The notes under the pieces are model-generated. The model was given only the letters and a program-made list of their open reading frames with translations, was not told where the DNA came from and did no database searches. The position numbers and the translations under genes are program-made. DNA of 59,135 nucleotides, counting the filler, from Dugesia japonica (Eukaryota): NCBI GenBank assembly GCA_001938525.1. It is 5 parts of 5 records of this genome, joined end to end, with 100 filler letters (N's around TTAATTAATTAA, not from the genome) between each part and the next. Parts side by side here need not be neighbours in the genome. Positions count along the whole stretch, not along the records: positions 38,241 to 48,722 come from MQRL01608036.1; 4 more parts are not named here. One strand, given 5' to 3'. This document shows positions 17,749 through 59,135 of this stretch, piece by piece. How positions within the stretch are numbered: the first letter of the stretch is position 1; the number at the start of each line of letters is the position of its first letter.

Positions 17749-17939
17749 GTAATTTTTACATTTTTCCATTTAAGTTTTCTGTATTGATTTTTTGTAAAAG
17801 AAAATTTAACAAATCTTAAAAACTTTCAGCTTTTATCCTATCATGTATTATCTAATTAATAAAAGGCACTAAATAAGGTTTTATTTTTAACATGAGAATC
17901 AAAATAATCAATAACCATAAATCTATCTTTTTTCATTTA

Positions 17940-18233
17940 TAGGGAACCCAAAAATCCGCGTTTTTAAGAACGGATTTGCATTTTGTGCAAATTATGTTTT
18001 CTACTATAAAATATAATTCTTATATAATTTANNNNNNNNNNNNNNNNNNNNNNNNNNNNNNNNNNNNNNNNNNNNNNNNNNNNNNNNNNNNNNNNNNNNN
18101 NNNNNNNNNNNNNNNNNNNNNNNNNNNNNNNNNNNNNNNNNNNNNNNNNNNNNTAACGTATATTGATCATTAAATGTTGTCTTATTTATTGAATAAATCC
18201 GTTCCTTAAAGAACGCTGTACTTTGGTCCCCAT
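17940..18233. mobile_element. MITE with about 38-bp imperfect terminal inverted repeats
   Basis: TAGGGAACCCAAAAATCCGCGTTTTTAAGAACGGATTT versus AAATCCGTTCCTTAAAGAACGCTGTACTTTGGTCCCCATA. Confidence 0.6.
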
Positions 18234-18343
18234 ATATAGTTTATTTATTATATAATTTATTTATTATATTTACTTATTTATAATACTTACTAACAATATC
18301 TTGTAATGGCATTACGTTTTTATTTGAATTTTATTTTGTGTAG

Positions 18344-18964
18344 ATTATGGAAGAATATAATGAAGCTGTATCTCCCTTGCGATTGGTTTTATTCGATGAT
18401 GCTTTGGAGCATTTAACAAGAATTCACAGAACTATTCGAATGGATGGAGGTCATGCTTTACTCGTTGGAGTTGGAGGATCAGGAAAACAATCTTTAACAA
18501 AATTAGCGGCTTACACAGCGGGTTGTGATATTTTTGAAATAGCACTCAGCAGAGGATATTCGGAAAAAGATTTAAGAGAAAATTTGAAAACATTGTACAA
18601 CAAACTTGGTATAGAAAATAAATCCACAGTATTTATGTTTGGTGATCAACATGTAGTAGAAGAAGGTTTTTTTATCCTCAATATTTTTTATAATCTCAGT
18701 TATTGCTTATTTAACAGGTTTTCTGGAATTGATAAACAATATGTTATCATCAGGAATTGTTCCAGCTCTATTTGCAGATGACGAAAGAGAGTCTTTAATT
18801 AGCCAAGTAAGAAATGAAGCTAGTGCTGCAGGAATGGGACCTTCTAAAGAATCAATTTGGCAATATTTTGTTAACAAATGCGCTAGCAATTTACACATCA
18901 TATTATGCATGAGTCCGGTAAGTCAAATATTGATTTATTATTAGTATTATTATTATTATTATTA

Positions 18965-19016
<52 letters not shown>

Positions 19017-19066
19017 NNNNNNNNNNNNNNNNNNNNNNNNNNNNNNNNNNNNNNNNNNNNNNNNNN

Positions 19067-19129
<63 letters not shown>

Positions 19130-23990: not shown

Positions 23991-24040
<50 letters not shown>

Positions 24041-24090
24041 NNNNNNNNNNNNNNNNNNNNNNNNNNNNNNNNNNNNNNNNNNNNNNNNNN

Positions 24091-24156
<66 letters not shown>

Positions 24157-26780
24157 TTAGAATAAACGTGAATTAGAAAAAGTTAATAATGAAATTGATA
24201 AACTTCAATCGGAACTCAGAGACCTCAACAAGCGATATGAATTGGCAACTGACGAACGACAACGATTACAGGAAGAAACTGATATTATGCAGAGACGTTT
24301 AAATGCAGCTGATAAATTAATTAATGGTCTCAGTTCAGAAAATAAAAGATGGTTAATTGATCTTCAATTGCTTAAAGATCAAAAAGTTAGACTTCTTGGA
24401 GATTGTTTGGTTTGTTCTGCTTTCTTGAGTTATGTTGGTGCATTTTCATGGGAATTCCGTAAAGAAATGGTTTATAATCATTGGAGAAATGATGTTGTTC
24501 AAAGAAACATTCCAATGAGTGATCCATTCAGATTAGAAGACATATTAACCAATGATGTAGAAATATCGAAATGGAATTCGGAGGGATTACCTCCTGATGA
24601 ACTTAGTATTCAAAATGGTATTTTAACAACTCGTGCTTCAAGATTCCCACTTTGTATTGATCCTCAGCAGCAAGCATTAAATTGGATTATTCAAAAAGAA
24701 GAACCAAATAATTTGAAAACAGCAACATTTAACGATTCCGACTTTTTAAAGCAATTGGAATTAGCTATTAAATATGGAATTCCTTTTCTATTCAAAGATG
24801 TCGATGAATATATTGATCCAGTTATTGATAATGTGTTAGAAAAGAATATCAAAGGTGATCAAGGCAGAGAATTTGTTATTTTAGGCGATAAAGAAGTTGA
24901 TTTTGATCCGAATTTTAGATTATATTTAAATACAAAGTTATCCAATCCAAAATATGGTCCAAACATATTTGGCAAATCTATGGTGATCAATTATACTGTT
25001 ACTTTAAAAGGTCTCGAAGATCAATTATTGAGTGTTATTGTTAAATTTGAAAGGAAAGAACTGGAAGAACAAAGAGAACGGCTTATTCTAGAAACAAGTG
25101 ACAATAAACGTTTGTTAAAAGATTTAGAAGATTCATTGTTAAGAGAATTGGCTACTAGTACAGGAAATATGCTTGATAACACTGAGCTAATCAATACATT
25201 AGAGGAAACAAAATCCAAGGCATCCGAAGTATCAGAAAAATTAAAATTAGGTGCACGGACATCAGAGGAAATTGATAAGCACAGAGATGGATATCGTGAA
25301 GCTGCAAAAAGGGGAGCAATCTTGTTTTTTGTTCTTGCTGAAATGTCATCTATTAATTCAATGTATCAATATTCTCTTTCTGCATATTTAGATGTGTTTA
25401 AATTTTCTCTCAAGAAAAGTTTACCGGATGGTAATCTACAAAAACGACTACATAATATGATGAGTACTTTAACTAGAAATGTATACAGCTATGGGTGTAC
25501 TGGAATTTTTGAAAAACATAAACTACTTTTCACTTTTCAAATCACTTTGAAATTAGAAATGGATAAAGGAAATTTAACTCAAGAAGAATTGGACTTTTTC
25601 ATAAAAGGTAACACATCAATTGAAATTGCAAAGCGAAAGAAACCATTTCTTTGGATCACTGATATCAGTTGGCAAGACGTGACAAGACTTGTTGAAGTTA
25701 TTCCTTCTAAATTTTCTTCATTATTGGATGATATAGAAAGAGATGAATATTCATGGAAGCAGTGGGTAAATGATGAAACTCCAGAAACAACAGCTCTTCC
25801 GAAAGATTATTCTAACAAACTTGGTAGTTTTCAGAAATTATGTTTACTCCGATGTTTTAGAATTGATAGAATTTATCGAGCGATAACTTTATATGTCATT
25901 GAACAAATGGGAGAAGAATATGTTACACCACCTATTCTTAATTTTGAAAGAATTCATGATCAAAGTACACCATTCTCACCAATCGTTTTCATACTAAGTC
26001 CTGGATCAGATCCAGCCAGTGATGTTGTCAAATTAGCTGAACGAAGTGGTTTTGGTACCAGTAAATTGAAATTTATATCAATGGGACAAGGTCAAGAAGC
26101 CAATGCTAAATTACTCTTAGACACTGCTATTGCTCGAGGCCATTGGCTGATTTTGCAAAATTGTCATTTATTAGTTAAATGGCTAAGAGAACTTGAAAAG
26201 GATCTTGAAAAACTCAGTAAACCACATCCCGATTTCCGTTTGTGGTTAACAACAGAACCAACAGAAGCATTTCCAATTGGAATATTACAAAGATCTCTTA
26301 AAGTTGTTACAGAACCACCAAATGGATTGAAATTAAACTTACGATCAACGTACGAGAAAATCGCATTATCTTCAATGAATAACTTTAATCATCCAGCTTT
26401 CCCATCTCTTGTTTTCACATTAGCGTTTTTCCATGCTGTAGTTCAAGAGCGCAGAAAATACGGAAAAATTGGCTGGAATATACCTTACGATTTCAATGAA
26501 TCAGATTTTAGAGTTTGCATTCAGATTTTAGAAACTTATTTACAAAAGGCTGCAGATCAAGGAGATACTAAAATACCATGGGGAAGTTTGAAATATTTAA
26601 TAGGTGAAGTAATGTATGGAGGTCGAGCAATAGATGATTTTGATAGACGTATCCTAAGAACATATATGGATGAATATTTTGGTGACTTTTTGTTTGATAC
26701 CTTTCAACCATTCCACTTCTATGCAAATAAAGTTGTGAGTTATCACATCCCTCAATGTGATTCTGGAGATGACCAATTAA
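18344..26780 (+). CDS. DNAH10: Axonemal dynein heavy chain 10, internal part (AAA4, stalk, AAA5, AAA6); partial gene
   Basis: Exons 18344-18665, 18718-18917, 19154-19443, 21470-21740, 21784-22063, 23036-23202, 24161-26780, GT-AG with matching phases. [14 protein letters not shown]-loop [43 protein letters not shown] are characteristic of DNAH10; 5' and 3' exons not seen. Confidence 0.92.
18936..19127. repeat. (ATT)n microsatellite filling most of a dynein intron
   Basis: Direct reading; partly N. Confidence 0.9.
20548..21383 (-). mobile_element. Penelope-like element 3' part with inverted pLTR copy, in a dynein intron
   Basis: [25 protein letters not shown] on - strand; 20548-20615 and 21319-21383 are inverted copies. 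Confidence 0.8.
22650..22800. repeat. (CTT)-rich low-complexity tract
   Basis: TTCTTC/TTCCTC reiterations. Confidence 0.8.
23958..24156. repeat. (ATT)n microsatellite abutting the dynein splice acceptor at 24160
   Basis: Direct reading; partly N. Confidence 0.9.
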
Positions 26781-27348
26781 GTTAGTTTATCAGTTTAATT
26801 TTTTTAATTTTAATGTTTAATTCCTTATTTCAATTGTGTTACAAATAACTTGAAAAATCAAACTAAAGTGTTGACTAATCAAGTATAATAGGAATAGCCC
26901 AAGTGGTCCATAACGACCCCTGGGTTGATAAAGTAAAAATTTAAAAGTTTTTTTTTAAAGATCCTCTAATAAGCCAAACCCATCAAAATCTTGAATTTAA
27001 ATAACAAAATATTGATATAGATCAAGCGAAATCTATATAATTTTTATTTCATTTTCATGGATTCTAAAAAAAACTTAAACACAGGCCGATATGGATTCAA
27101 AATGACATTAATAATGGAATGTAAATACAACAAACAATCAGGTTATTCTTTGATTATTCTAGTTTCTTGTAAAGTCATAAAATTATTAATCTATACAATA
27201 TTCAGTGATTCCGTTNNNNNNNNNNNNNNNNNNNNNNNNNNNNNNNNNNNNNNNNNNNNNNNNNNNNNNNNNNNNNNNNNNNNNNNNNNNNNNNNNNNNN
27301 NNNNNNNNNNNNNNNNNNNNNNNNNNNNNNNNNNNNNNNNNNNNNNNN

Positions 27349-28757: not shown

Positions 28758-30451
28758 ATTCACTTGGAACTATTATCTTTTTTCTCAATTTTGCTATTAA
28801 GTCATTCCATTTATCAGGTTTGGCATCCATATTTTTATAAAATTTTAATGCATATTCTTTTAGATAAAGTGGCAATCTTTAATTAATTTTGCTTCTGTCC
28901 ATCCACAAGCTGTGGCACAAACCTGCATATGTTCAAAGTATTCGTAGAAATCCTCAGGTTTCCCTGCATAAAATTGTATTGGTAATATATTCAATGTACC
29001 TCGGTGTCCAAATCCACCTCCTACTTGATCATTAATTGGTAAAATTTTAAATGGCATATTTTCATTAGTATTATTTGCTGTAGCCATTATTTGAATTCCT
29101 CTTTTTCGCAATTTATATACTATATTCTCTTCAATGATTATTCCTTCAGTTTCTTTCAACTGGAATACTAATAATTATTCTCTTCGGTATCGTTTCAACC
29201 GGAATACTAATCAAACAACTTCTTCGGTATCGTTTCAACAGGAATACTAATCAAACAACTTCTTCGGTATCGTTTCAACCGAATACTAATCAAACAAATT
29301 CTTCGGTATCGTTTCAACCGGAATACTAATCAAACAAATTCTTCGGTATCGTTTCAACCGGTAAACTTTGAATCACTTTTGACTTTATTACTTTAGGGGA
29401 ACTGATTTTATATTATCAGAACTTTGATAAGAGATTGCGGCAAGAATTCAATCCAAACCTAACACCAAACTTAAAATAATCAAATTAATCAACTTTGATA
29501 AGAGATCGTAGTATGATTTTCTCCAATATCTGATATCAAACTGATCAATACACGGTATATTTTAATAAAGGTCTGAACACCCGCTTGATTTTAAACTAAT
29601 TTTAATAATTTTTATTATTTTGATTCCCGGTTCGCGGCACCAAATTTGTTGGGTATTTAACTCAACAAAATACTAATTCACTTTTGTTAACATTTGTTAC
29701 TGCTTTTCTTTAGCTGTTTAATGTTATGTGTGTAAGTACAATATTATATAAGAGATATATTACCAAAATATAAATATGTGATATACTGTATTCGATCCTA
29801 TATAAATAAAATAAATAAACACCTTGTAAATATTTATTTTTGGGATTATATAACCTTACACGAAAACTTTATAAGTTATTAAAAGGAGAAAAGCCACCCA
29901 AAGAGAGAGGTTTTCTCAATTTAAGCCGTCTGATTTTTTCATCAGTATTTATACTGATTTTCAAGGCATACGCATACACACAATTACATACATATACATA
30001 AAATAAATATTCGTAAAATCAATTATCATATAATTATCATATAATGTTGATAGTCAATCAATTATTATATAATTAAATTATTACAAAATCAATCTATACC
30101 GGATATCGTTTCAATTATTTACATAACTAATCATTACAATAAATTATATCAAGTCAGATAAATGTCAGAAATTTTTACAATAAATTGTATCAAGCCAAAT
30201 AAATTAACATAATTGTCAGAAAATCAGATAAATTAAAATAATACAATAAATGTTATTGATCAAGTCAAATAAATTAAAATAATAAAATAAATGTCATTGC
30301 TTTCTTTCTCTCTCTTTTCTTTTGAACAAATTTATTGTCTAATTACCTTCTTGCGAATCTTTGTTGAATTGCTTTGATTGGGGCTGATCATACTGATTAT
30401 TATCTGTTATGTTCTGTTGTGTATGCATGCTATGTTATGTAATTCTCAACA
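28758..30451 (-). mobile_element. Ty3/Gypsy-type LTR retrotransposon 5' end (LTR, PBS, leader, start of gag)
   Basis: LTR 29647-30451 bounded TGTTG...CAACA; PBS TGGTGCCGCGAACCGGGA at 29642-29625; gag-like YAGKPEDFYEYFEHMQVCATACGW, then frameshifted LPLYLKEYALKFY; inserted into a Penelope copy. Confidence 0.8.
29154..29361. repeat. Tandem repeat, about five copies of a 40-bp unit, in the retrotransposon leader
   Basis: Unit TCTTCGGTATCGTTTCAACCGGAATACTAATCAAACAA(C/A)T at 29181, 29221, 29261, 29300, 29340 (last partial). Confidence 0.9.
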
Positions 30452-38240: not shown

Positions 38241-38460
38241 GTTTCTGTATTTTATCTTCTAATTGTTTTATATATTTTAAATTAACTGCATCATGTAAAT
38301 CTATAGGATCTTCTATAATTTTTAAACATGATATCATATCACCTGTTTCATTTACATATTTATTTTCATTTTGACCATCTGACATTTTAATTTTAACATT
38401 AACAGTTTTTAATATTAAACTAGAATCTCCAGCATTAACACTAGTAACAAAATTATTCAT
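38241..38460 (-). CDS. Putative fibre-like protein N-terminus (truncated)
   Basis: KYVNETGDM...IEDPIDLHDAVNLKYI resembles the GD.M..DP....DAVNxxY repeats of viral fibres; overlaps the protease stop. Confidence 0.5.
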
Positions 38461-38920
38461 CCTTCTCCTTTATGGTTTTGCGTACGCTCTTTTTTAAATC
38501 TAAATTATCATATAAAGATTTCATTTCAGAAATAATATGTCCGAAGTCAGTATGTTGTAGTGAATATAAAAAGTAAATACATAAAATTCCACATATTTCA
38601 GTTCCAAAATGTTGAACTTGAATTTCATTATAAACTTTTACTTGTTTTTCTATTTTTTTTAAAGGTTTAAAACCAAAAGAGTCAAAATATTGATGATTAC
38701 TATAACATACCCAATGTGTTCCATTTTGATTTGAATTTTGATAATTAAAAATAATGTTTCCATTTAATTCTTTGGGTATTTGTCCGGAGGTCAGCGTAGC
38801 GATTTCATTTTTCATATAAATCTCTAAATGTAATTCTAAAAAGTCAGCAATTGAATATAAATCAAAATTTGTAGTTGTATTGATTCCAAATGTTTTTAAA
38901 AAATCTAATAAGTTATACAT
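38453..38920 (-). CDS. Adenain-like (C5) capsid maturation cysteine protease
   Basis: GTHWVC...YFDSFG...QVQHFGTEICGILCIYFL (His, Asp, Gln, Cys intact). Confidence 0.9.
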   Translation of the reverse strand: MYNLLDFLKTFGINTTTNFDLYSIADFLELHLEIYMKNEIATLTSGQIPKELNGNIIFNYQNSNQNGTHWVCYSNHQYFDSFGFKPLKKIEKQVKVYNEIQVQHFGTEICGILCIYFLYSLQHTDFGHIISEMKSLYDNLDLKKSVRKTIKEKDE

Positions 38921-39077
38921 TTTTATGTTATTTATTAAATATAAAATATTAAATTCTAAAGTATAAAATGTTAAATATTAAATTCTAAGGCACGCGTGCC
39001 TTTTTAAATAATAAAATATCACTGGTTAAATATAAAAAATGCGCCACGCGTGGCGCTAAATGTTAAAATATTACTGG

Positions 39078-39743
39078 TTAAAGTCTATATTTACGTAAAT
39101 GAACTAAAATTGAAACTTTTTCATTATTAAAATCTATAGAGTTAAAATTTTCATCCATAATTCTAATTTTAAAACTGTCAATATAATCTGTATTAATTTT
39201 AGAATAAATTGGTGGAGATGGTTTTTCAATTATTTTATATCCAAATGGAACTGTATTAATTGGAAATGAATATAAAAGATTAATATTTTTAGTTTCACCA
39301 TTTGATAGTACATAATTACCTTTAACAATATTACAAGTTATATTTATCGTATTAATATTTGTAATGTTAACTTTTTCATCTGATTAATGATCTCCAGGTT
39401 GATAAGTTCCTGGTTTAAAACCTAAGATTGTATGAAAGAATGATTTATTATCAAATGTTAGAATATTTTTTAATTTAATGTTACATTTTGAAGTTGCTGT
39501 ATCTAGTATAATTTAAATTCCATATTTTTCTAAACGAATTGACATTTCTTTTACTTCATATGCACCAGGTTCTAATGTCTTAGATTTATTAAATTTATTA
39601 TTTTTATCAGTAACATTAAAAATAATATTGTAACATGAGAAAAAAAATAATCCAAGTTCATATTCTGAATCTAATTTTATAGGATAATTTAAATTTATTT
39701 TTAATTCATCTTCTTTTCCAACCAATAAGAATTGATGAGACAT
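39078..39743 (-). pseudogene. Minor capsid protein (penton) with two in-frame stops
   Basis: PIKLDSEYELGL..NIIFNV..PGAYEV..LGF..INITCNIVKGNY..LYSFP..VPFGYKIIEKP..IYLKI..IRIMDEN..IDFN..VHLR; TAA at 39513 and 39384; single 222-codon frame. Confidence 0.85.
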
Positions 39744-39763
39744 GCTTTGTGCGTAGCGATTTC

Positions 39764-40722
39764 TTAATAAAAATATTTAGATTTATATTTTTTATAAATC
39801 ATGTTAAATATTAAACCTTGAGATTTTAATTTTTTACATACAGACTTAATTTCTTTAGATAAATTATTATGTCCAGATTTTGCTGCTGAAATTAATAATG
39901 TTAAATTTTCAAATAAAGCTAATGGATTTATGGATTTTCCTTCCTTTATGGTCTTTCCTTCCTTTATGAGTTTTTTTTGTTGCCCTTGTGGCTGTTGCTT
40001 CCTTTATGGGTTTTGTTACCCCTATGGTTGTTGGTTCTAAACTTTTTTGTCTACCTCTTGGTTTTTGGCTTTTTATATTTCTTAAATAATTACAATATAA
40101 ATCAACTTCAGTTGCTTTTACCAATTCTAAATATATACCAATATATTTTTTTGTTTGTTCATCTGACTTTATATTTTGTTTATTTCCTGAAATTATATCT
40201 ACTAAAACATCATTAAATATATGAGTTTTTTCACCATCATAAATATAATTAAAATTTTCCCTTTTATAAAAATATAAATCATTATCATTTCTAGGAAATT
40301 TTATTGTTAAAATTTTTTTATCAGGTTCTTCTTTCATATTAATAGTTGTGTAAAACATTTTTGGTGTTGTTAATTCTGTTAATGTATCTTTATTAATTAT
40401 AAAATATTCAATTTTTAAATCAAGTGGTTGTAAATCATTTTCTTAAATATTTCAAATTTTTTATCTATAGGTTTTTCTTCCTTCATTATTGATTCTTCCT
40501 TTATGGATCTTTCTTTTATTATTGGTTCTTTTATTAGTTCTGGTAAATGTGTAATTGTTGGTTCTAATGTAAGTTTTTGTAATGCATGGTTGGTTGTTGT
40601 AAAATTGATAAGTTAGTTTGTAAATTATTATAATCAAGAACTTTACTACAAAAAAAGTTGTTATATTTTTCTTGAGCTTTAACTTGCGCTTTTAAATCTT
40701 CAATTCTTTCAGTGACTTCCAT
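39764..40722 (-). pseudogene. Frameshifted conserved Polinton hypothetical protein
   Basis: Joins MEVTERIEDLKAQ..., ORF 39909-40358 and C-terminal NPLALFENLTLLISAAKSGHNNLSKEIKSVCKKLKSQGLI, which resembles the DPNEL.RL.LL.AS..AGN...EI..I..EL...GII motif I recall from Polinton proteins. Confidence 0.55.
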
Positions 40723-40763
40723 TTGTCTTTTATAGATCTTTCTTATAATAATAATTTCGTCCT

Positions 40764-41396
40764 TTATGAGTTTTCATCTTCAGTTTCTTCTTCATCAGTT
40801 TCAGTTTCATATTCATCTTCTTCAGCTTCAGTTTCAGTTTCATCATCTTCTATTTCTCCACCTTTATGAGTACTGTATGGATTTAAATATAAACCTTTTC
40901 CTTTGTGAATTATTTTAAGTCCTTTTTTAAACTTTTTTGTTAAACCTTTAAATTTAGGATCAATATTTTTAAAATATTTATGAATAGCAGAACCTTGATA
41001 TGGATTTAAGTATAAACCTAGGCCCTTGTTAGATTTTTTTAAAATTCCTGATCCTTGTGCTGTAGTTGTTTGTGCTGTTTTTATTTGTGCATCAATTTGT
41101 GCTTGTAATTGTTTTTTCTGTAATTCAACTAATTCTGACTCTTTTTGTTTTTTAATAGCATCTCTAGAACTAGCAACTGTACTTGCAATTCCAGCTGCAA
41201 CTCCAGATGTAGTTGCTAATGCGCCAATTATTGCTGGAATTGCAGCTAGGAATGCAAATCCACCTTTATGATATTTTTTTAATTCATCTTTAACTTTTTT
41301 AGAAATATAATAATTTTTACCATTGATTTTTACAGATTTACATTTTTTAGAATTAACTATTTTTTCTAACTCTTCTTCTGTTATGTCACTTGTCAT
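40764..41396 (-). CDS. Adenovirus pX-like virion core/membrane-active precursor
   Basis: Basic segment then KGG/FAFLAAIPAIIGALATTSGVAAGIAS (compare adenovirus pX RGG/ILPLLIPLIAAAIGAVPGIAS); two GxGLYLNPY motifs; acidic tail. Confidence 0.65.
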   Translation of the reverse strand: MTSDITEEELEKIVNSKKCKSVKINGKNYYISKKVKDELKKYHKGGFAFLAAIPAIIGALATTSGVAAGIASTVASSRDAIKKQKESELVELQKKQLQAQIDAQIKTAQTTTAQGSGILKKSNKGLGLYLNPYQGSAIHKYFKNIDPKFKGLTKKFKKGLKIIHKGKGLYLNPYSTHKGGEIEDDETETEAEEDEYETETDEEETEDENS

Positions 41397-41405
41397 TTTT
41401 CTATA

Positions 41406-44400
41406 TTAACAAAATAGATTTTTATTTATTTTATCTAATCTAAAATGCCAATCTTCACATGTAAAACATTCAAATTGATTTCCATGTGGCCATGTTCTAG
41501 TTGCATTATCTTCAATAATTCTTTTGTCACTATAACCTGTTAAAGCTATCTTTTTTTGTTCAACTATTTTAATTTCATGAAAATCAGATTTTAATGAATA
41601 ATTTGTTCCATAAATTATTTTCTTTGGATTTTTTAATACACTGTCAAATTCTTGCATTCCAATTTTATTGAAAAATTGAACACCTTTATGTTTTTTATCA
41701 AATTTAATACTTTTATGGATCGCTTCGCTTGCTGTGCTTGCTATACTATTTTTATCTTGGTACTCATAAGCATAAGAATTTGGTTTTATAAATGCACATT
41801 TAAGAATTTCAGAATTAGGCATTTCATCTTTCATTTGAAATAAATCATTTCCAGTTATTTCTACAAATACGGAATCCGTGTCTGAATAATGAATTTTATA
41901 ATTATCTTGTCCAACTGCTGGTTCTAATTGGTTATAAACAAAATTTTACATTACTTCTTTCGCATATTCAAGAATACTAAATCCCAAATATGAAAATTTA
42001 TCATATTTTAATTTTGTTTTTGTTAAATGAACTGCTCCAATGTAAGATGAAATTCAAGAATCTAATTTGAAACTTTTACAACTTAAATATGTTGGTTTAG
42101 ATAAAAGATTTTGATAATCTTTATCAGTTCATCCAATATGTATTTTACATCTATTTCTAATATTTTCAAGTGTTTTTCCAAAAAATGAATTATTCATATC
42201 TTTAAAGAAAGATAATCCAAATTCATCATTGTTTCTTTTTGCTATATTTCTTTGTTCAATATTAAAAAGTTTATAATCTTTTAACCATGTAGTTGTTGGC
42301 ATTTTATATTTACAATGTATCTTTTTTAGTATCATTCCTAAAGAAAGATATAAATCTAATGTTGAACCTAGAATTATATAATTTTTCTTATCGAATTGAT
42401 TCATTGTTAATTTAATATTTTTATCTGTTGGTTTTATATTAAATAATTTTTGATAATTACTTAACATGTCATTTGTAATAGCTATTTTGTCAGGTGCTAA
42501 TGGAAAATATTTTGTTCTATCTTGAATTTCTCTTGGATAATCAAGATCAACTTCATATAAATAATTCGTTTCTGGAGTTGAGATTTCATAACACAGTTCG
42601 TCACATTCAATAAATTCACCTGTTGTTAATGGTTTTGTCATGGAACTTGCATATAAAGAATTTGCATCAAGATATTTTATATGAGTAGGTCTTATTAAAT
42701 TATTAAGATGATCATCTAAAAGTTGAAGATCACCAGTTAAAATTACATTTATTAAATATTCTTTTTGTGCTTGATTTAACCTTCTACTTGAATCTCGAAA
42801 TTTATCATATGAAAGTACTTGACGTTCACCTTCTTCTCCAGAATATCCACCTTTAACTCCACGTTCGAATTTTAAAAATGTATCATAAGTTTCAGGTTTT
42901 GCATATTTCAATTTAACTTTTGTATATCTCATTCCAGCTACCCATTTTAAACCTGATGCTGTAAAACAATAACTTGGATCTATTTTATAAAACTCTAAAC
43001 ATATCTTTCTAAAATTTTCTACGTAATCTGCTAGAATTAAAACATCTAATTTCATATAGTGTAACATGTATTTCCAAAGATTTTTAAATTTTTTGAAGTC
43101 ATTTAAAAATTCTTGATATTCATTGTCAGATATTCCTTTTTGTTTTAGTCTGCTAAAGAAATCATTTTGTGTTGGAATGTTATTTGATTTTAATAATTTA
43201 ATAACTTCTGTGATATTATTTGCTTTAACATAATCATATGGAAAACTTGCTTTTTTAGNNNNNNNNNNNNNNNNNNNNNNNNNNNNNNNNNNNNNNNNNN
43301 NNNNNNNNNNNNNNNNNNNNNNNNNNNNNNNNNNNNNNNNNNNNNNNNNNNNNNNNNNNNNNNNNNNNNNNNNNNNNNNNNNNNNNNNNNNNNNNNNNNN
43401 NNNNNNNNNNNNNNNNNNNNNNNNNNNNNNNNNNNNNNNNNNNNNNNNNNNNNNNNNNNNNNNNNNNATGATTGTCATATCCCATTGCATTATGAAAGTA
43501 ACATGGTATAAATAAATTTTCTTTACTTAATTGTTTACATTTTTTATGTGTATAGCCACGAAATTTATCTGTGAAATAATTATAATCTAAAACTTGATTT
43601 TCTATGATTTCTCCGGAGCAATAATAACATTTTGTATTTTTAGTGAACACTGGATATTTATTTGCATATTCTTTTTGTAAATTGTTAAATGTTTTATTAA
43701 CTTTTTCAAGAAACTTTATAAAATCATTAACTACATTTTCTACTGATAATTGATAATATTTATTTGCTATTAAATTTGGATAATCTGATTTAAAATATAT
43801 TCCTAAACTTATTGGTTCTTGAATATTATTTTCTTTTGTGTAACATTCAAAATCACAATACATTACAAATGGAATTTTATTTTTAAAATAATGATTTTGA
43901 AATTTAAAATTTTCTTGTGGAGGAAATACAACATTTGTTGATTTATGATGAATACATTCTTCTTGATGTTTTAATAAAACTTTTTTATTTGAATAAATAT
44001 TCATACAACCGAGACATAATTGATTACCATATTCAACTTTAAATAAAGCATGTACATTTCTAACTAATATAAAATGACTTTTATAAATTAATAAATTGCA
44101 TTTATTTTCTTCCGGATTTGGTGTTACATCAAAATGTTTAATGCGAATTGGTGTAATTATTTTTCCATTTAATTCAAAAACATTTATTTTAAAATTATTT
44201 AACTTTTCAAATATCTTTATATCCTCAATTTCTGCTGGAAAATTCATTCCTTCAGTTTTTAATTCTTTTAAATATGGAATATAATTAGTTACTCTTCTAG
44301 CATTAGGTAAAACATGTTTATGTGCAAGAACTAAATATAATAAACATTTATCATCAAAATTTTTAATATTAACAATTCCATATTTATTTTCTGTTATAAA

Positions 44401-45165
44401 TTCTGGTAATTCATGATAAGTATAAGCACCAGCTTTTATTTTTGAAGCATATTTTTTTAAATGTATTCTATAATCAACTAGATGGCTTAAATTCAAATTA
44501 GATTCATTTAAATCTTTATTTCGCATAAAACTTTCCACCTGTTCAAACGTTTGATGTAATTTTTTAGATATTGATGCTTTTGTATAAATTCTTTTAATAC
44601 TACTGTAAGAATAAAACGTTGCTGTTTTATCTTCTTTAGTATATTCACAACTAACACCTAATTTAAAATAAAATTTATATCCTAACGTAAAAAACTTTCT
44701 AACAATTTCTTCTATTTCCGGTTTAATTAATTCAGTTGTAGTTAATCTTTGATCTTCAACATCTTTTACCATATATAATCTACTATTTAATAAAACATCA
44801 ATATAATAATAATCTGGATATGTTTCTTCATTAAAAACTTCTATAATATGTTTTGGTTTTGTATTCCAATTTCTATCTATTTTTTTAGTTAATAACAAAT
44901 GTCGTTTATTAGTTAGTCTATGTTCATTTATTAAAACTTCAGTATTAAAATGTTTATCACAAAGTTCACAATATAAATCTAAACTATCACATTTAGTTTT
45001 TTTCATGTGAACATTTAAACCTTGTTGAGTTTTAAATTTTTTATGACAAACTGGACATGTTAGATAATCTTCTGGATTTACATTTAGACATTTTTTAGAT
45101 TGTATATGTGAATTTAAACCACGTTGATTTAAAAACATTTTATTACAAATAGAACATGTAACAAT
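41406..45165 (-). pseudogene. polB: Protein-primed family B DNA polymerase (pPolB) with N-terminal zinc fingers, OTU-like and EndoVII-like domains; disrupted
   Basis: ExoI YCDFEC, ExoII FHNAMGYDNH, ExoIII YMKLDV, motif A YLDANSLY, B KDMNNSFFGK, C YSDTDS, KxY and KHKG; in-frame stops at 42129, 42054, 41946; N gap 43259-43467; the first CSIC finger starts upstream of the ORF-track Met. Confidence 0.9.
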
Positions 45166-45217
45166 TTTTTATATATTTTTATTCTTTTTTATTATAAAAA
45201 TTTTAATCGTGTATATT

Positions 45218-45465
45218 GTTTTCCTCTTAAATTTTTCCTCTTAAATTGAACAGATGAAACATTTGATATTTCACATTTGATATTTGATATTTCCCAGATG
45301 AAACATTTGATATTTGATATTTCCCATTTGATATTTCCCATTTGTTATTTCCCATTTGTTATTTCCCAGACGAAACATTTGATATTTGACAGATGAAACA
45401 TTTGATATTTGACAGATGATATTTGACAAATGAAACATTTGATATTTGACAGATAATATTTCCCC
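45218..45465. repeat. Modular subterminal repeat array of the Polinton
   Basis: Shuffled modules CAGATGAAA, CATTTGATATTT, CCC/GAC; tandem TTTTCCTCTTAAATT x2. Confidence 0.8.
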
Positions 45466-45540
45466 GAACCCTGAGTGAATATGGGTTATTATACATATAC
45501 TTATATATATAAAATAAAAAAACGCAATTTTTTAAAACAT

Positions 45541-46130
45541 TTAATCGTAAGACATGTTTAGGACAAATTTATGTCCATCATCAGTTACTGTGGTAAAATA
45601 AGAAGGAAATTGTTTATATACTGGCCAATAAAACCTGTTATGTGGTGCAGTAGATTTATGGCTTAAATGACTTGAGGTTTTCTTTGAAGTGAAAATTAAT
45701 TTAAATTTATTATCATCAAAATATTTCATAAGGCAGCATTTTAATGATTTAGATCCTTCCGAGAATGGTGGTTTTATAGTTTTTTTCTTGATTATTTTTA
45801 ATGTTATCTTCTTGGTCATTATTTGTTGTTGAGCACAGTTTGTTTAGAAAACTCCTTATATTATTATAAATCGTTTTGTGATTATATCCATAAGCTCGTA
45901 AACTACTATCTAATTTGTTAAGACCATCATCAGCAATCTTAAAGCTTGATGATATACACCGCTCTCTATGAACCAAACATTTTATTAGTCCTTTCTTATA
46001 TCAATCATCGTAAAAAGCTTTAGGAGTGGTATAAAGTCTTGTGTCTGAAGTATTATAATTGCAACCCTGTCTACAAACAAGAACATCTAAGAATGGTAGT
46101 TTACTTTCTTTTTCAACTTCTAACTTAACT
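45541..46130 (-). mobile_element. Penelope-like RT C-terminal relic
   Basis: EVEKESKLPFLDVLV...YKKGLIKCLVHR..ISS. Confidence 0.7.
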
Positions 46131-46779
46131 TAAAAAAGTACTCTTTTTAATTTATAAGTATTATCAAAATTACATTTTTATAAATAATCTCAAGCCTCCA
46201 TTAGCAGAAGCTTCCAGTTTGGAAATCACTTGCGTTGACAATTATTCAATGAATCCAACACAATTGATTTTAAATAATAATCTGAATTTATTTTAAATTA
46301 ATTAATTTTTTTCTTTGTATTTACTTTTCTTATTGTTCTTTTTCTTGTAACTTTTTTAGTTCAATTTCCCATTCATGTCGTATTTCTCGTTTATGTTTAA
46401 TGACCTTTCTTCAAATTTATCTCGAAATTTTCTAAAAGATTAAACTTAAGAGGTATTTTTCTAAATTTCCTTTAAAAGTCTTATCTAGATAATTTGTCAA
46501 ATTTCTCTTTTGGTTTTTCTCAATTTAATTAGTCTTTCATCTGATTTTAAAATCTTTGACAGATTTATTTCCTTTATTTTCTTCTGAAAATTTTTGATAT
46601 TGTTGTCAGCTCTATTATTCCAGATAAATTTATATTTATTTAATAATCTTTCAAAGTTTTAACAACTTCAAGGTAAACTTAAAAATTTTGCTTAGAATTG
46701 AAATCCATCTTATTCTAGAATTCATGCTCCTAATATAAAAATTAAAATATTTTTGGAAAAAAAGAGGCTCAATAATATA

Positions 46780-47460
46780 GAAAGAAAACTTTCAATTCTA
46801 TAATATGAAACATAACCATTTTAAATCTGTTTCTTAATAAAATGATTTTTATTATATTAGTTGTGTATGTGAACTGTGATTTTAAAGAATATTATCACAT
46901 TTTCTTCAAATAAATTATAAAATCTTTTGAAACAATCTAATGAACATGTGGCCTAGCGTTATCATGTTGCAAAGCTTTCTTTGAATGTCTATTCTTCAAT
47001 TCTGGTATTTGTTCGACCAGGGCTAGCTTCAAACGAATTAAATGCAATCGATAACACTTATCAATTATAGATTCCGATGTTTTTAACAGTTCACAATAGA
47101 TGATACCTTTCTGATCACACAGATAAACAGCATAACTTCTAAACCTTGGATTTTTGTTTTAATATATTGGATTCATACTAGCTGCTTTAAATTATAGATT
47201 TTTAAGTGAAACTATTTTTTGTCTTCCGTAAAAATTTAATGTAAAATTCCTTTTCTTTTCTGTTCCTGAAGAAGAACATTGTTTTTCACCATTTAATGTC
47301 TCCTTCCATCAACACACGTTAGACCGATCCCCCAATTCTGGAATCATTGCAATACCTTGAAGGCATTGTGAAATACATTGTTGGGTCACATTTAATGTGA
47401 CAGCAAGCCCAGCTTATAGAGTCCATGGGTATTTCAGCATAATTGCTAATTTTTGGCACA
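46780..47460 (-). mobile_element. Degenerate mariner transposase
   Basis: LNVTQQCISQCL, TEDKK, LQHDNARPHV. Confidence 0.75.
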
Positions 47461-48328
47461 ATTATTAACTGTATCATAACAAAATCTAGAATCATATTTG
47501 TATATATATATATATCATTTAAAAGTTTTTTAGATATGACCTTCTGTGTTAATAAATTTAAATTACTTAGTTGATAATATTTAGTAACTATTATGATTCA
47601 TAATATACAATTTACAAATTTAAAGTTTAATAAAAAACCTAAAAGAATAATTCTGGTAAGGATATGCTGTAAAGACTATTAATTTATTCTATATTAATTT
47701 TATCAAATATTTCTTCTCCTCCTTCAATTTTTAAATTAATAAAATTTCCTCGTAAAGTATTATGGTCGCAATTGCGACACATTGACACGTGTAAAATGAC
47801 CGGAATAAGAGCTCGTATCAGATATAAGCATGTGAATTAAGTAGTTAATTAAAATAATAAAACGTCATTTAAAATCAAGAAATTGTTGTAGACATTTTAA
47901 GAATTTCTTCAAATTTTTACAGATTATTAAATTATAGTAATTGAAAATGTACAATTATACGATTAAAACAAAGTAGTGACAAAAAATTGCGAAGCATTTA
48001 TTTGTGTTAATTGACACGTATTTATTTATTCTCTTTTATATATTAAAAGTTACACGCTTATAATTAATATTGTGTTAATTATTAATTATAATCAGGCAGA
48101 AATTCGACCTAAAAGTGGATTGTGTTGATATTTTCATATAATCACCAATATAAAAAAGACTGAGTGTTGCTAATCTAATTTTCTATTAAAACTACAATAA
48201 GATAAAGTAAAACAAAACCAAAAAAACAAAGAAAAGCCAAACAAAAATATTCAATAGTTTTTGTTAATTTATCTTATTACAAATTGTTTACACTATGATG
48301 GAATTTCTTATTATCGTTACCGTATATT

Positions 48329-48633
48329 CAGAGCCTGCTCAAACAAAGGCGGCGCCCAGTGGAAAGTTTCCTAGCGTGGCCTTGAAAGAAATTTCATAGA
48401 GGAAATAATTATAAAAATGTTTTCATAAATAGAATAAAAATTCGTTGTTTTAGTTTTACTATTTACATATATTAGGAAAACTTTTATTAATTTAATTTAT
48501 TATAAGTCATTTATCTAAATCTTTTTCAAAAACAATTGATAAAAATATTTTATTAATAACATTTTACTTACAAAGCGATCGACGCTAGACCTTGTGTGGT
48601 GGCACCGTTTGTACCGACATCGGGCTTGCAGTG
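48329..48633. mobile_element. hAT-type MITE
   Basis: 8-bp TSD CGTATATT (48321-48328, 48634-48641); decayed TIRs CAGAGCCTGCTC / GGGCTTGCAGTG. Confidence 0.6.
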
Positions 48634-48722
48634 CGTATATTTCATCCAATTTATTCTAAGTTTTTTATTTAATCAAATATCACTTGATACATTAAATATT
48701 TATATTCTCGATTTGTTTGCAT

Positions 48723-51906: not shown

Positions 51907-52293
51907 GTCTACATCATTCGAAAAAGTAGTAGTAAATCATCAAATTTTATAAAGATCAATCAATATCAATATCACTATCAATAAACATTGAAATACCGAA
52001 ATAAAATTTACTGTAAAACGAAGATATTCTAAATTGTTCGAAAATTTGGTAAATGAAATAATAGAGAATCAAATTTCATTAATTGGTATAAAATCGACGA
52101 AAATTAATAGTGACAAAAATAATGAAATAATTTGAAAATAATTTATGCTGAATATTAAAAAGATATTTTATTTTAAAAGTTTTCAAAGTTTCAAATATAA
52201 TTTATTAAATACTGTCAAATTAACAAAATAAAAAGCAGTTTAAATTGGAAATAATGTTTTAATTTATTTTGCAAATTAAATCAAAATATCAAG

Positions 52294-53235
52294 TTAAGCG
52301 CACAATCCATCTTCGCATTTTGTGTCTTTTGGACAACTAGTACAGGAAAATCCAGTTTCATACGGATCAGCTCCTTGTTCATTGCCACTAAATTAATTCA
52401 AAAATTAATGTAAAAATGTACTAATTTAATTTACGCAGGGCCATAATTACAGACCAGTGACGTCATACCACTTTGGTTTTCGCAAATGGTAGCAGCACAT
52501 CCAACCTCTTGTGTTTTAGCCCACACTAACTGTAAATGACAAATAAATTATTTTCTTTAATTTATATTTTAAAATTTAAATCTCATAACATGTTTTTATT
52601 TTTATAGTTTATATTTAAATGAATATCTATTGAAATTAGCATGCCATATGTTAACAGACCATATGTTAACATATCATTATTAACAAGAGATAATTTCAAA
52701 ACGAAAATAATTTACTTGAGTATAATGACCACATTTCTTTTGGCAAGTCATTGCGTTATAATTAAATAGAGTGAATTCTTCAAACCACAAATCCACACCT
52801 CTGATCAAATTAAAAATTTAATATTATTGCTAAAAATTATTAGAATCACTTTGTAATATTAGTTCCTGGGAAAATAGCAATATTTTGTCCGACGTTTTTA
52901 AATGGACCATAAATTCGAGCATTTTTATCGTCATGATCAATTGTACATTTGTTTGCTAAAGTTTGTGCCATTTCCGCAGCCGTAGAACTCCATTTCTAAT
53001 TTATTATATAAAATAATTTAATTTCAAATCAAAATTATAAAAATTCTGAAGTGAATTTTACCATTTTTAACATATTGGCAGCCGGCGGTTGATCTTTGAT
53101 TTTTCCATAAGCTATCGCTCTTCTATAATTATTATGTACTTCAAGAAGTTGATTTTTTTCACTGTCGGTAAGAACAGAAAAACAATTTTGAATACATATT
53201 ACACTGAAAATAGCAACTAGACATAAATAATTCAT
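52294..53235 (-). CDS. Secreted CAP/SCP/TAPS (venom allergen-like, GLIPR1-like) protein, 5 exons, 197 aa
   Basis: Exons 53235-53062, 52995-52850, 52800-52716, 52529-52435, 52387-52294 (594 nt, GT-AG); signal peptide; HNNYR, QPPAANMLKMKW, VGQNIA, CGHYTQLVWA..VGCA, VCNYGPAGN, Cys-rich hinge; TATAAA at 53280-53275. Confidence 0.93.
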
Positions 53236-53472
53236 AATTAATGTTTAATGGATAATAAGATCTAGTTTCATGCATTTATATTACGAATTTTATTTGCATG
53301 ATATGAACAGATCTACAAATTTAATAGACAACAAAATAGATATTTCATCTGTTTCCTGAAATCTGTTATGGAAATATGTCAATTTTCTTTTAAAAATAAA
53401 AAAAAACTGAAAAGTATATAGATTTTATTTTTTAGCTATTTACAATTAAAAATTTTAAATGTCTAAAATTCC

Positions 53473-53737: not shown

Positions 53738-54084
53738 TTGTTAGATGAGTTTTGAGTACTCATCGGATCATCAACATCAAAATTCGGTTCCATATTAAAA
53801 TTTATTTCAAATAAAAACTAAGAACATAATTTGCTTTTTTTCAAGCAAACTTAAAAATTCATATTTAAAAACGAAAAATGCTAAATATTTTAATTTAAAA
53901 TTACTATCCAATTTAAAATACACTAAAAACATTCATTTAATTTTGTATTTTATTCTATTTAAAATATCATTAAATTTTAAAATTTTTTTTATAAATGATT
54001 TTTCTGATAAAAATTTGCATCCAAATTTGATTTTAATAAATTCCGTTTTAAAATACAATAAGTTTAAGTCTTATTTCAAAAAAC

Positions 54085-54265
54085 TATCTTATATCCCTCT
54101 TTTTAAGAAATTTTTTGATCTTCTCTACGTTTCTTTCAGGACTTTTCCCGTTTGTATCTTCCAGAATAAATCGTCTGTCGTGAACTTTCCTCTTGATCTT
54201 ATAGGGTCTTTCATAACGATCTTGTTTCTTGTTTCAACTTTCGCTAAGACTTCATCACTAGGAAA
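54085..54265 (-). mobile_element. Small Gypsy integrase C-terminus plus polypurine tract relic
   Basis: RYERPYKIKRKVHDRRFILED...RNVEKIKKF followed by AAAAAGAGGGA. Confidence 0.45.
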
Positions 54266-54430
54266 TACTAAACTAGGATTCCGGAATTCCGAAAACCGGG
54301 ATCCTGGACCATTTTGAACCAGTTTTTAATACCAGTTTTTGTTGGTTCAATTTCGGTTTTTCGGTTTTCAAATATTTTCAGTCATTTAGGTAGTGATTGA
54401 TACAAAGTCCTTATCAATTTAATTACAATC

Positions 54431-57400
54431 TGTGGAACTATTAGTCTAGCAGTACACTAAACCAAACAAAACGTTTTTGATTATGTTATTGTAATTAAAT
54501 AAGGGAAATTAAGTTTACTAAAATTTATTTAAAATCTACACAAATTAATTATTATTATTAAAATACATGTCACAATCCCCTTTCTTTAAAGATTTTATCA
54601 CATATTTAGGATTTGGCTTTATCTCTCTCGTTGGATATCGCTTTTTGCATTGTTCTGAGTTGTCTATAAGAACAAGCTTTACATCACTGTTGTTATGTGG
54701 CACTAATGATTGATTTCTTTTACCGTTTCTTTTTTATTTCTGAATTCTCCATGGAATCGTTTTACTAGGTGAAGATTTCGACAAATTACTTTCATTCCAT
54801 CATCTAATTCTAAANTNTAATTACTGAGAAACTTGTTTACCATCCACGGTCCTGTAAATCTTTTTATAGTAACCCTCTGTCTTNTGTTTTTACCATTACC
54901 CAATCACCNATCTTTAACGTANTGTTCTTATTTTCTGCTTTATTTTCTTTTNGAATCTGTTTTCTCTTTTCTGTAATTCTCTCCCTTTGTTGTTTAAAAT
55001 TTTTCTGAAAATCCATTTTGTAAATTTCTACATTGGCAGTCAAAATATCTGATTTCAAATCCATATTTTTTTCAAAAAGAATTTTATAAGGTGCGACCTC
55101 CAATTTTTTGTTANNNNNNNNNNNNNNNNNNNNNNNNNNNNNNNNNNNNNNNNNNNNNNNNNNATGATCTCATACTTAGTTCAACAAAAGGAATTGCTTT
55201 AACCCACGATTGGTTATGCGACTTACAAGATGCAAATGATTTGTCTTTGGCTGTTCTAAATACGCGTTCTAGCCCATTACCCTGATGATAATATGGTGCT
55301 GAAAATGATTGCTTTATTTGTAATTTATTACACAATTTCTTCATTATTTCCGATTTAAATTGTGTTCCGTAATCAGAATGAATTATCCTCGGAATACCAA
55401 AGTACGCTATCCATCTTTCAAATATCATTTCAGTAACTGTATTGCAGAAATATTCTTCAATGGTATTAACGGTATATATCTAGTAAAAAAATTGATGATT
55501 CCTAAAATATATGAATATCCCTCGCAATTTGGTAGTGGTCCAGTTATATTGCAACATATCATTTCAAATGGTTCTGTAGCTGTAAAAGAGTTTTTGATAT
55601 TGTAACCCATTTTATTCCCCTGCTTTCTCTAAGCACATTGCATACAATTTGCGACAGACTTCTATGTATCTTTTTCCATGTCCATTCATTCATGATATCT
55701 CTTGATATTAGTCAAAGTTTCATTAGCGTTTGGATGAGCTAATTGACGTGAAAATATTTTAAAATGTCATTGATTTTCTTTTTATTATACTCTTTATATG
55801 TATCTTTTAATTCATTAATTTGTCGATAACCTTCATCATCTGAATTGCTTTTGTTGGACTTTGACACTTTGACATTTTGTCTAGTTTTTGGGTTGATATG
55901 TTTTATTTCACATTGTTCGCACTGGAATTCTCTGGAAAGTGCATCTGCGTTTGCATGTAATCGTCCTTTTCGATGTTGAATTTCAAAATCATACATACTT
56001 AGTTTATCAATCCAGAAGCAGTACTGTGATGTATTTAGTCTTTTCTAATTCAACATCCATGTTAAACTCTTATGATCTGTACAAATAATAAATTTCTTCC
56101 CCAATAAATAATGCTTGTATTTCTTCACAAAGTAATAAACTGCCATGAGTTCTTTCTTGGTTATACAATAAATTTTTTCTGCTTTTGAAAACTCTTTAGA
56201 TCCATAGCATTGTTATCTTGAATTTGACTTAAAACTGCTCCCATAGCAAAGTGACTAGCATCTGTATCCAATACGAAAACATCATTCCTATTTGGAAACG
56301 ATAAAACTGGTGCGCTTGTGAGAGCATATTTCAGACTTTCGAAAGATTCCTTATGAAATTCAGCCGATATTGAATCTATCTTTTTTCCGTTTTTCGTGAT
56401 GTTTGCATCTCTTAATAAATCTTCTAGAGATTTAACGATTTTGGCATATCCCAAATAAATCTTCTGTAATAATTGCAAAACCCTAGAAAACTTCATAATT
56501 CTTCATTTGTCTTAGGAATACTCCAATTCTTTACTACACTAATTTTTTCTGAATCAGTTTCTACTCCTTCGACTGATATTATGTGACTCAAATATTTTAC
56601 TGAAGTTTTCAAAAAAACGCGTTTCTTTGGAGATAACTTAACTCCTGACTACCGAATCTTCTCTAATACTATTTTCAGTCTTTCATTGTGTTCCTCTATG
56701 GTTTTCCCGAAAATCAAAATATCATCGAGATATATTAAGCATTTATCGAAATTTTCTTCTCTGAGAACTAAATGCATTAATCTTTGAAAAGTTACTGGTG
56801 CTCCACCCAGTCCAAAAGACATGCGATTAAATTCATACTGACCTTTTCATGTAGCAAAATCTGTTTTCTCGCTGTCTTTGTCACTTATTTCTAAATTGTA
56901 ATAACCACTAGATATATCAAGTGCACTAAAAAATCTTGATCCCGCAAGTGAATCGAATAACTGTTGGTTATCTGGAATAGGATGTATAGGTCTGTTAGTA
57001 ACTAAGTTTAATTCTCTATGGTCTATACATAGTCTAATGTCTCCAAATTTCTTTTGAACAACCACAATAGGTGAAGACCACGGACTTGAACTCTCGCGAA
57101 TGATTCCGTTGTGTTCAAGCTCTTTGATCATTTCGTCGATGTTACTCTTTAAATGAAGGGGAGCTCTTCGTAATGGTTAAGCGTTAGGTTTAGGATCAAT
57201 AACATCTATTTCGTGTTTTAANNNNNNNNNNNNNNNNNNNNNNNNNNNNNNNNNNNNNNNNNNNNNNNNNNAAGTGGACAATGTCCGATATCATAATTAT
57301 CTTTACTAAATATATCTTTAAATTCTGTAATTATCTTTATTACAGGATTTTTCGCATTTTAATCGATATCAAATGAAGGTTTGTTCATAATCGTATACAT

Positions 57401-59135
57401 TATACATTGGATATGCCCAATCCCGGTATCTTGATATATTCTATTAATATTTGCGATATTATCTTCTCTATCATCTACAATCTCAATACAGCCTAATCTC
57501 TAATTTCGAAACATTTTAATATCTTTATATTTTAAGTTAATTATTCTTACTCGGATTTTACCAGTTACTCTAACATAAGATACACTATTCGCAGCTAAAA
57601 CCCCTATATTCGCTAACTTATCTTTATTTGGACGAAAAATAAACTTTCTTTAAACAAAATATATTGCTATCTACACTAGCTAAGACAGTTACTTCCTCTT
57701 TTCTCAAAATTGTAACTGTATTTTCTAATATAACTCTTACTGTACACATTTGAGCCCCCTTCACACTTCTCTCACTATTATCTGGACCCACGGATACAGT
57801 GCTCTTTAGTTTTCCGCTAACTCTCTTATTTGGGATATGAAAGGTACTTTTATTTCATCTACAGTTATACAGTCTAGTTTTGGTAAAATCGAAATGTTCA
57901 TTTTTTTCATATTTCTTATGCCTATTATGACTTTTGGGAACAATTTATCTACAATAGTCATCCTAATTCTATTAGTTTTATTTCCTATAGTTACATTTTT
58001 AAAGAATATCCGATTACCTCGATCGGTGAGCCATTTGCACATGTAAATGTCTTGTTTGATCGAATCAGCTTGACTTTTTCTTTTTTCTCGGATCATTTGA
58101 AATAGTTTGAAATCCATGATGCTGGACTCTGCTCCAGAATATATAAAAATTTTCTCTTCTTCTTGTCCTACTTTGCCTTTGATTTTTGGTTTGTTTGTTG
58201 TGAGTTCGCTTCTTGTATCTGATATCATTGTTCTTTGTCCTTTGTAAATTGGAAATTTGTGTCTTGAACCTCGAATATATTCATCCAACTTAATAATATC
58301 GTCTGGGTAGTTGATATTTCTTTTTCTTTCCTTTTGTCTTTCTATTTTCTTTTCTTTTAAAACAATTTTGAAAAATTCTTTATTATCTTCAGATTTCTTT
58401 TGATAATCAAAACTGGCTTCATCATATTCAATATTAGAATTGTCATTTGTTTCATCTAGTCTTCGAAAAGCTTCTTTCTGAATATTAGATATTTTTGCTG
58501 CTTGACAAAATCGAGATATATGCCCGGATTTGTTACAGTTTCTGCTTAGCAATGGTTTGTTGCAATTTTGAGCAATATGATCTTTCCCGTTACAATTAAA
58601 ACATTTTAATTCTTGTTTGAACTTTTAAAGTGCCTACTTAGGAGAATCTGTTTCATGGTTTCTTGCCAAATACTTTATACGATTTTCAAGCTCAATAATC
58701 TTTCGTTAAAATATTTCCATTTCTTGACATTTTGCTGTATTAACATCATTTCTAATAATTCATAATTTATCATTATGCCGAGTTTTATCTTCCTTTTTCA
58801 TAAAATTGAAAGCTTCTACCAGTGTGTTTGGTTTCATAATTTTCGTGGCTCTGGCTGCCAAACAATTATTAACCCCTTTCAAAAATATTGATAAGAGAGT
58901 CTTTTCTCTATCAAATTCATCATAATCNNNNNNNNNNNNNNNNNNNNNNNNTCTGATAGCAGTTAGATACTGTCTAAGAGTCATATCTTCCTGCTTCAAG
59001 GATAAAATATTAATTATTGGAGTTACTTTAGTTGACTTGATTTAATATAATTCAAATATTTTTGTCTTCAGCCATTCATAATTCGATTTAAACTCTGGAA
59101 TTAATTGGAGTTCAAAAAATGCTTCTTCTTCTAAA
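54431..59135 (-). mobile_element. Ty3/Gypsy LTR retrotransposon (gag, zinc knuckles, protease, RT, RNase H, integrase), degenerate
   Basis: CFNCNGKDHIAQNC knuckle, protease IYSGAESS, SSPWSSP, ALDISSGYY, YLDD, LDTDAS, HANADALSR, IHSDYGTQF, FTGPW; PPT AAAGAAAGGGGA 54587-54576, then 3' LTR start TGTGAC at 54574 (LTR end uncertain). Confidence 0.92.
57751..57815 (-). promoter_or_regulatory. Predicted -1 ribosomal frameshift site with H-type pseudoknot
   Basis: G GAA AAC TAA at 57815-57806; stem 1 CACTGTATC/GATAATAGTG; loop TGGGTCC can pair with GGGCTCA; -1 frame is open across the stop. Confidence 0.6.

Follow-up and report, generated by a model that had tools for sequence, protein, structure and literature searches.

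We analysed a 59,135-nucleotide stretch of Dugesia japonica DNA (assembly GCA_001938525.1; hereafter the window), made of contigs joined by N44-TTAATTAATTAA-N44 linkers, and found a copy of a Polinton/Maverick element on the contig at 38241-48722 (MQRL01608036.1). The element is very probably a broken member of a large Polinton/Maverick family, with its major capsid, packaging ATPase and integrase genes likely lying past the contig end. The copy is dead, as neither a full polymerase nor a full penton can be made from it. Being dead and partial, it draws attention to its family but decides no question alone.

Six main intronless frames on the minus strand span 45168 to 38242 in the order pPolB, pX-like gene, helical gene, penton, protease and start of a fibre-like gene (Table 1). 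Their 1841 codons include five stops (0.27%), where the 10% stop rate seen in 200 shuffles would give about 184. An earlier note on this DNA had described the same order from the sequence, and all the frames it named are present as stated. Its gene labels stand on sequence, profile and fold evidence, the fibre label least firmly, and the frames called pPolB, single jelly-roll penton and C5 protease each match the corresponding profiles or folds. The protease and pX-like frames are open, as the note had claimed, and the few stops it saw in two other genes number three in polB and two in the penton gene. The overlapping or abutting frames that it reported exist between pPolB and the pX-like gene, between the helical gene and penton (which abut), and where the protease stop overlaps the start of the fibre-like gene, but not between penton and protease, which are set apart by a 157-bp spacer. 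The note's single hypothetical open reading frame (ORF) was wrong: there are four frames, and only the last has been shown to have homologues. Because position 38241 adjoins a linker, the left edge is a true contig end, where the note had placed a break. The base composition of the Polinton stretch resembles that of the rest of the window. None of six window ORFs had an exact-sequence match in the protein collection, and single-protein scans of viral contigs gave no close relative.

The polymerase gene encodes three C2H2 zinc fingers in its N-terminal half (Pfam zf-C2H2 families). Its first in-frame ATG (45138) lies within the first finger, with no ATG before that finger, and its three in-frame stops (42129-42131, 42054-42056 and 41946-41948) are all upstream of motif C. 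By pairwise counts the exo D/E residues are kept, as are the exonuclease motifs and polymerase motifs A, B and C, and the copy agrees with its relatives at 69 of 85 and at 22 of 27 strongly conserved positions. The C-terminal half matches PF03175 above the curated cut-off (Pfam, E=9e-8); the match is weak and partial, and most listed relatives are without PF03175. Of 2592 candidates, at least 100 were relatives at E<=1e-3, with identity reaching 39% among the matches listed, and the N-terminal half is 25-33% identical to full-length relatives. Named relatives listed come from a scorpion, spiders, ticks, snails and a moth, together with one metagenome bin labelled bacterium, and most listed relatives carry an endonuclease VII domain. 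The endonuclease-VII-like insert of the window copy is degenerate, both conserved motif histidines being lost. Searches of PDB returned nothing with the single pPolB sequence and nothing below E 0.01 with a pPolB profile, and Pfam gave no match to an OTU domain. Cys275 and His365 align with columns conserved in relatives; the name vOTU for this N-terminal region is presumptive and follows in part from a motif. The same Cys and His sit where the accessible text of PMC11161782 puts the vOTU site.

A polB phylogeny, a check that the earlier note had proposed, placed the window copy on a long branch (1.26) as sister to 21 metagenomic sequences with support 0.94. The tree (FastTree, 122 rows) was midpoint-rooted and built without named Alpha or Beta adintovirus references; ten short rows were dropped (P0033, P0078, P0087, P0094, P0095, L022, L023, L024, L026 and L027) and five duplicate loci were left out.

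The penton, compared with X read at its two stops (39513-39515 and 39384-39386), matches two database proteins at 52% and 39% identity and ORFs of related loci (numbered L below) at 28-50%. Several of these ORFs have as neighbours PF21738 (double jelly-roll) capsids, A32 ATPases and rve+chromo integrases. A sequence search of PDB with a penton profile gave no solved relative. Foldseek ranked the mavirus penton first (E=3e-8) for a structural model built from nine sequences (predicted local distance difference test score, pLDDT, 82), followed by the Sputnik and adenovirus pentons. Comparison of the model in VIA gave Z 10.3 and a root-mean-square deviation of 7.8 over 168 aligned residues, and BFVD returned proteins of Polinton-like viruses (PLV), MELD, adomaviruses and adintoviruses; the best structural matches were without exception pentons of viruses.

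The protease keeps H69, D80, Q103 and C110; in 98 sequences Q103 and C110 are invariant and H69 and D80 near-invariant. It has 830 relatives at E<=1e-3. Against PDB the single sequence found nothing, and the profile matched adenain, the adenovirus protease (E=3.6e-9); in Pfam the match reached only E=0.04. The top fold match of the protease model (pLDDT 89) was adenovirus proteinase 1nln. In the spacer between penton and protease, each palindrome has CTGG-T 17-21 bases further on, and the two are the only such palindromes in the window. Contigs of many other copies skip the spacer. The palindromes with CTGG-T resemble what we take to be tandem Helitron 3' ends, and the spacer is likely a small Helitron-type insertion.

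The pX-like ORF matches loci L062, L047 and L036 (tblastn, E ~1e-6 to 6e-6). Its L036 homologue matches Adeno_PX (E=5e-4), and Atlas clusters with Adeno_PX agree weakly with the ORF (0.89-0.90). Pfam showed no PLA2 domain on the ORF; four related loci have PLA2X, and a PLA2 gene may lie beyond the contig end. Several G-G and G-x-G motifs in the protein resemble adenain cleavage sites and may be used as such by the protease. The four frames of the helical gene are likely one gene broken by frameshifts, for which the name GasderminX was considered and not adopted. Homology is shown for its C-terminal piece only (40003-39767), which was found by a profile of eight locus proteins sharing a helical C-terminal motif (E=7e-11 among 776 window ORFs); the gene also sits before penton in L036 and L030. 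For the profile of eight post-protease ORFs, the fibre-like stub was the best of the 776 window ORFs (E=3.9e-4). Phage tail-fibre families were matched by six of the seven post-protease locus ORFs scanned and not by the window stub, for which Atlas support was only 0.85. The fibre-like identity of the 73-residue stub is the weakest label of the cluster.

Table 1. Features of the Polinton copy and its flank on contig 38241-48722, in window positions
Feature	Coordinates	Strand	Remarks
Fibre-like gene, N-terminal 73 aa	38241..38460	-	overlaps protease stop, cut by contig end
Adenain-type (C5) maturation protease	38453..38920	-	open, 155 aa
Penton-protease spacer	38921..39077	+	two GC-rich palindromes
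Penton (single jelly-roll minor capsid protein)	39078..39743	-	221 codons
Conserved helical Polinton gene	39764..40773	-	four frames: 40773-40567, 40612-40418, 40442-39912, 40003-39767
pX-like core protein	40764..41396	-	open, 210 aa, acidic tail
pPolB C-terminal half	41406..43258	-	exo III and polymerase motifs A, B, C
209-N gap within pPolB	43259..43467		relatives have ~80 residues there
pPolB N-terminal half	43468..45168	-	three zf-C2H2, likely TP/vOTU region, exo motifs I-II, endonuclease-VII-like insert
Tandem repeat block upstream of polB	45245..45465		likely subterminal repeat of element
Separate high-copy repeat	45500..46160	-	depth step and loose ends at 45640
Low-copy host flank	46291..48722		contigs of depth 6-17, 0-2% differences
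Mariner-type transposase fragment	46940-47158		Transposase_1, E=3.7e-6

From the five stops, neutral change since the loss of constraint is estimated at about 0.012-0.014 per site (95% range 0.004-0.032), or about 1-3%, with frameshifts uncounted. The penton, protease and pX-like frames were under constraint until recently. In pPolB, 16 of 85 and 5 of 27 conserved positions differ. These differences exceed what the five stops predict, so that either part of the divergence is specific to the lineage or the decay is older.

Several observations weigh against the reading of a broken copy whose remaining virion genes and integrase lie past the contig end. No capsid or ATPase turned up anywhere in the window, whether the queries were four capsids, three ATPases or 745 locus ORFs, and no rve integrase was found in the contig, the only Polinton-type remnant being on another contig. 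The closest gene-order relative found, L036, holds a compact virion module at 1994-6523 (capsid, pX-like gene, ATPase, helical gene, penton and protease, in that order); its capsid and ATPase flank the pX-like gene and are absent from those positions here. Polintons have terminal inverted repeats and a 6-bp target duplication, and neither was shown in the contig, which has no long inverted repeat and where only one end is present and is covered by a repeat. On the same side stand the excess of changed pPolB positions and several properties of the sequencing data used below: summed contig depth is not copy number, the source sample may be among the best DNA runs, only part of each RNA run was read, and none of the listed contigs bridges element and flank across the intervening repeat. 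The heavily decayed Polinton-type rve integrase on the next contig (48950-49700, minus strand), which has a chromodomain-side match, is a second, older element, unlinked to the copy described here.

The lack of capsid and ATPase at their L036 positions would also fit a reduced, non-autonomous Polinton lineage without these two genes, spread as a transposon only and retaining penton, protease and core genes as relics; Polintons without these genes are reported in the accessible text of PMC4028283. We consider such a lineage quite unlikely. Gene order varies widely among related loci. The window contig breaks off within a gene, past which the contigs from other copies continue (loose ends at 38249). 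The recent constraint on penton, protease and pX-like frames would be hard to explain without particles, and PMC4028283, as far as its accessible text goes, describes capsid, protease and ATPase as being lost in concert. Our preferred reading is a broken copy from a family with these genes. In its favour, L037 reads penton, protease, fibre-like gene and, further on, pPolB, and penton directly precedes protease, as in the window copy, in 5 of the 23 locus rows with homologues of both (L030, L031, L032, L036 and L037), the 23 including five rows that repeat a contig. As its relatives carry PF21738 capsids and rve+chromo integrases, the term Polinton-like virus, which the earlier note had applied, does not fit in its strict protist sense.

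Other copies were observed only through contigs from sequencing runs. Part of the element was present in 12 of the 24 runs listed, 11 of the 12 from one organism, in five studies. In all four DNA-type runs analysed, summed contig depth per bin (not to be equated with copy number) was about 1,000-97,000 over the element and 15-150 over the near single-copy flank at 46291-48390. This contrast suggests hundreds to thousands of copies and bears out the integration into host DNA claimed by the earlier note. The insertion that the note described does not stand alone and belongs to a very large family, of a kind known from planarians; because capsid, ATPase and integrase were not seen in the contig, we still infer the virion capability of the lineage. 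Most aligned contigs were 90-95% alike (14070 of 31787 in run X1, neighbouring repeat included), and contigs of other copies are without two of the three polB stops. Depth was low at 39991-40690 and 44541-45240, which may reflect faster divergence or filtering.

On the right, one contig of depth 6.8 is identical to the window over 45218-45411. The repeat at 45500-46160 covers the right end of the element and shows very high depth and most of the RNA reads of the contig. It gave no Pfam retroelement match, and there was no Rfam hammerhead match at 45200-46400; at 45584-45557 this copy has a hammerhead-like core that deviates from the canonical one. On its motifs the repeat is likely a fragment of a Penelope-type retroelement. 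A GIY-YIG-like endonuclease fragment without a Pfam match, on another contig (34833-35183, minus strand), is likely part of another Penelope copy. An AG-type terminus near 45501 was considered as the end of the element and rejected, being indistinguishable from the tail of the neighbouring repeat.

With no listed contig bridging element and flank, and with the nearest pPolB, penton and protease relatives metagenomic, one might suppose that a virus, either free or a contaminant from a symbiont, a food organism or a protist, was mis-joined to host DNA. This is very improbable given the stops, frameshifts and nested insertion, the absence of any N between 43468 and the flank, and a base composition like that of the rest of the window. 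Furthermore, DNA runs from three studies of one organism contain thousands of diverged variants together with a near single-copy flank.

RNA mapping, likewise proposed in the earlier note, recovered almost no reads: three raw RNA runs, of which only 6-25% was read, gave 38, 574 and 62 reads of 10.5, 13.6 and 11.6 million. These were mostly partial and mostly on the neighbouring repeat, and depth over the viral genes was at most 1.45 on either strand. Thus, the Polinton family is nearly silent in the three RNA libraries read. The runs listed as containing the element include no RNA run, which says nothing about expression; the element is also covered by run X8, which may be DNA. Host co-option of the protease and pX-like frames, with selection preserving them, is barely credible: both are open with catalytic residues kept, but at five stops per 1841 codons the chance of an open frame exceeds one half for each of the two (155 and 210 codons), RNA depth over the two is at most 1.41, and both genes belong to a many-copy family.

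By analogy with the wider family (PMC4028283 and PMC11161782, accessible text), active members would replicate by protein priming from their ends through pPolB, and the rve integrase would insert new copies. Their DNA could be packed in icosahedral particles, matured as the protease cleaves the pX-like core protein. The window copy later decayed through the polB and penton stops, the helical-gene frameshifts and the small insertion between two genes. Polintons are main piRNA (PIWI-interacting RNA) targets in the planarian Schmidtea mediterranea according to the accessible text of PMC8532177, and silence of the present family would likely come about in the same way. It is possible, if unlikely, that complete members of the family persist and that it is an animal Polinton able to form virions, with hundreds to thousands of PIWI-silenced copies in a laboratory planarian and with polymerase and virion genes that branch with metagenomic elements and not with named mollusc or arthropod adintoviruses. 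If so, a regenerating animal tractable to RNA interference would be a natural reservoir for Polinton particles and for the switch between transposon and virus.

The other contigs of the window hold further features. The first carries a host Tbx2/3 gene (2699-10378, minus strand), the last exon of which is 74% identical to Schmidtea mediterranea Tbx2/3c, its only match among 2406 candidates. If the contigs all come from one host, this points to a triclad that is not S. mediterranea. Part of a gene with an 874-codon exon (17749-26785, plus strand) is, on its motifs, presumably an axonemal dynein heavy chain. A tandem array at 29154-29361 consists of 5.2 copies of a 40-base unit that are 92% alike. 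On the minus strand, a spliced host gene (52290-53240) resembles CAP/SCP-family proteins, and a decayed Gypsy-like long terminal repeat retrotransposon (53800-58900) retains gag zinc knuckle, protease, reverse transcriptase and rve pieces.

Polintons of planarians that carry capsid, penton, ATPase and protease genes were first published by 2014: the accessible text of PMC4028283 describes four from Schmidtea mediterranea, and Polinton-1_SM and Polinton-2_SM have all four genes (Table S1). Compared by gene list only, our copy resembles these two in its planarian host, penton and protease and differs from them in host species and in being broken and partial. Orthopolintovirales insertions in flatworms are the subject of bioRxiv 10.1101/2025.04.19.649669, and a preprint on Dugesia (2026; bioRxiv 10.64898/2025.12.11.693146) reports a Maverick expansion that drives genome growth. 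Our results agree with the latter in the very high Maverick load of a dugesiid planarian; in its accessible part, that preprint treats Mavericks as repeats, without an account of virion genes. We found no gene-level account of this Polinton family in the literature; repeat libraries and supplements could contain one.

PMC8502044 defines Alpha and Beta adintoviruses, and the accessible part of its supplement contains neither flatworm names nor reference Beta sequences. Beta adintoviruses have a PolB distant from the pfam03175 type, with an OTU domain at its N terminus, and the accessory genes GasderminX and Cupiennin. The class of the window copy is likely Beta. As in adintoviruses, there are penton, adenain and pX-like genes, the pX-like protein is without PLA2, pPolB resembles PF03175 weakly, and the rve integrases of relatives carry a chromodomain. 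Unlike adintoviruses, the contig showed no hexon, FtsK-type ATPase or integrase, and the pPolB of the window copy has three C2H2 fingers near its N terminus and an endonuclease-VII-like insert that is degenerate. The pX-like ORF without PLA2X also sets it apart from the Alpha virion module. The metagenomic elements L036, L037, L030-L032 and P0001-P0024 come nearest, sharing the pPolB clade, the order penton, protease, fibre-like gene and a penton 35-53% identical, yet they are only 30-55% identical and the window copy forms a long branch. The family thus adds to planarians a divergent, very high-copy Polinton with a virion module, and the constraint on its virion genes until recently may bear on whether animal Polintons routinely form particles.

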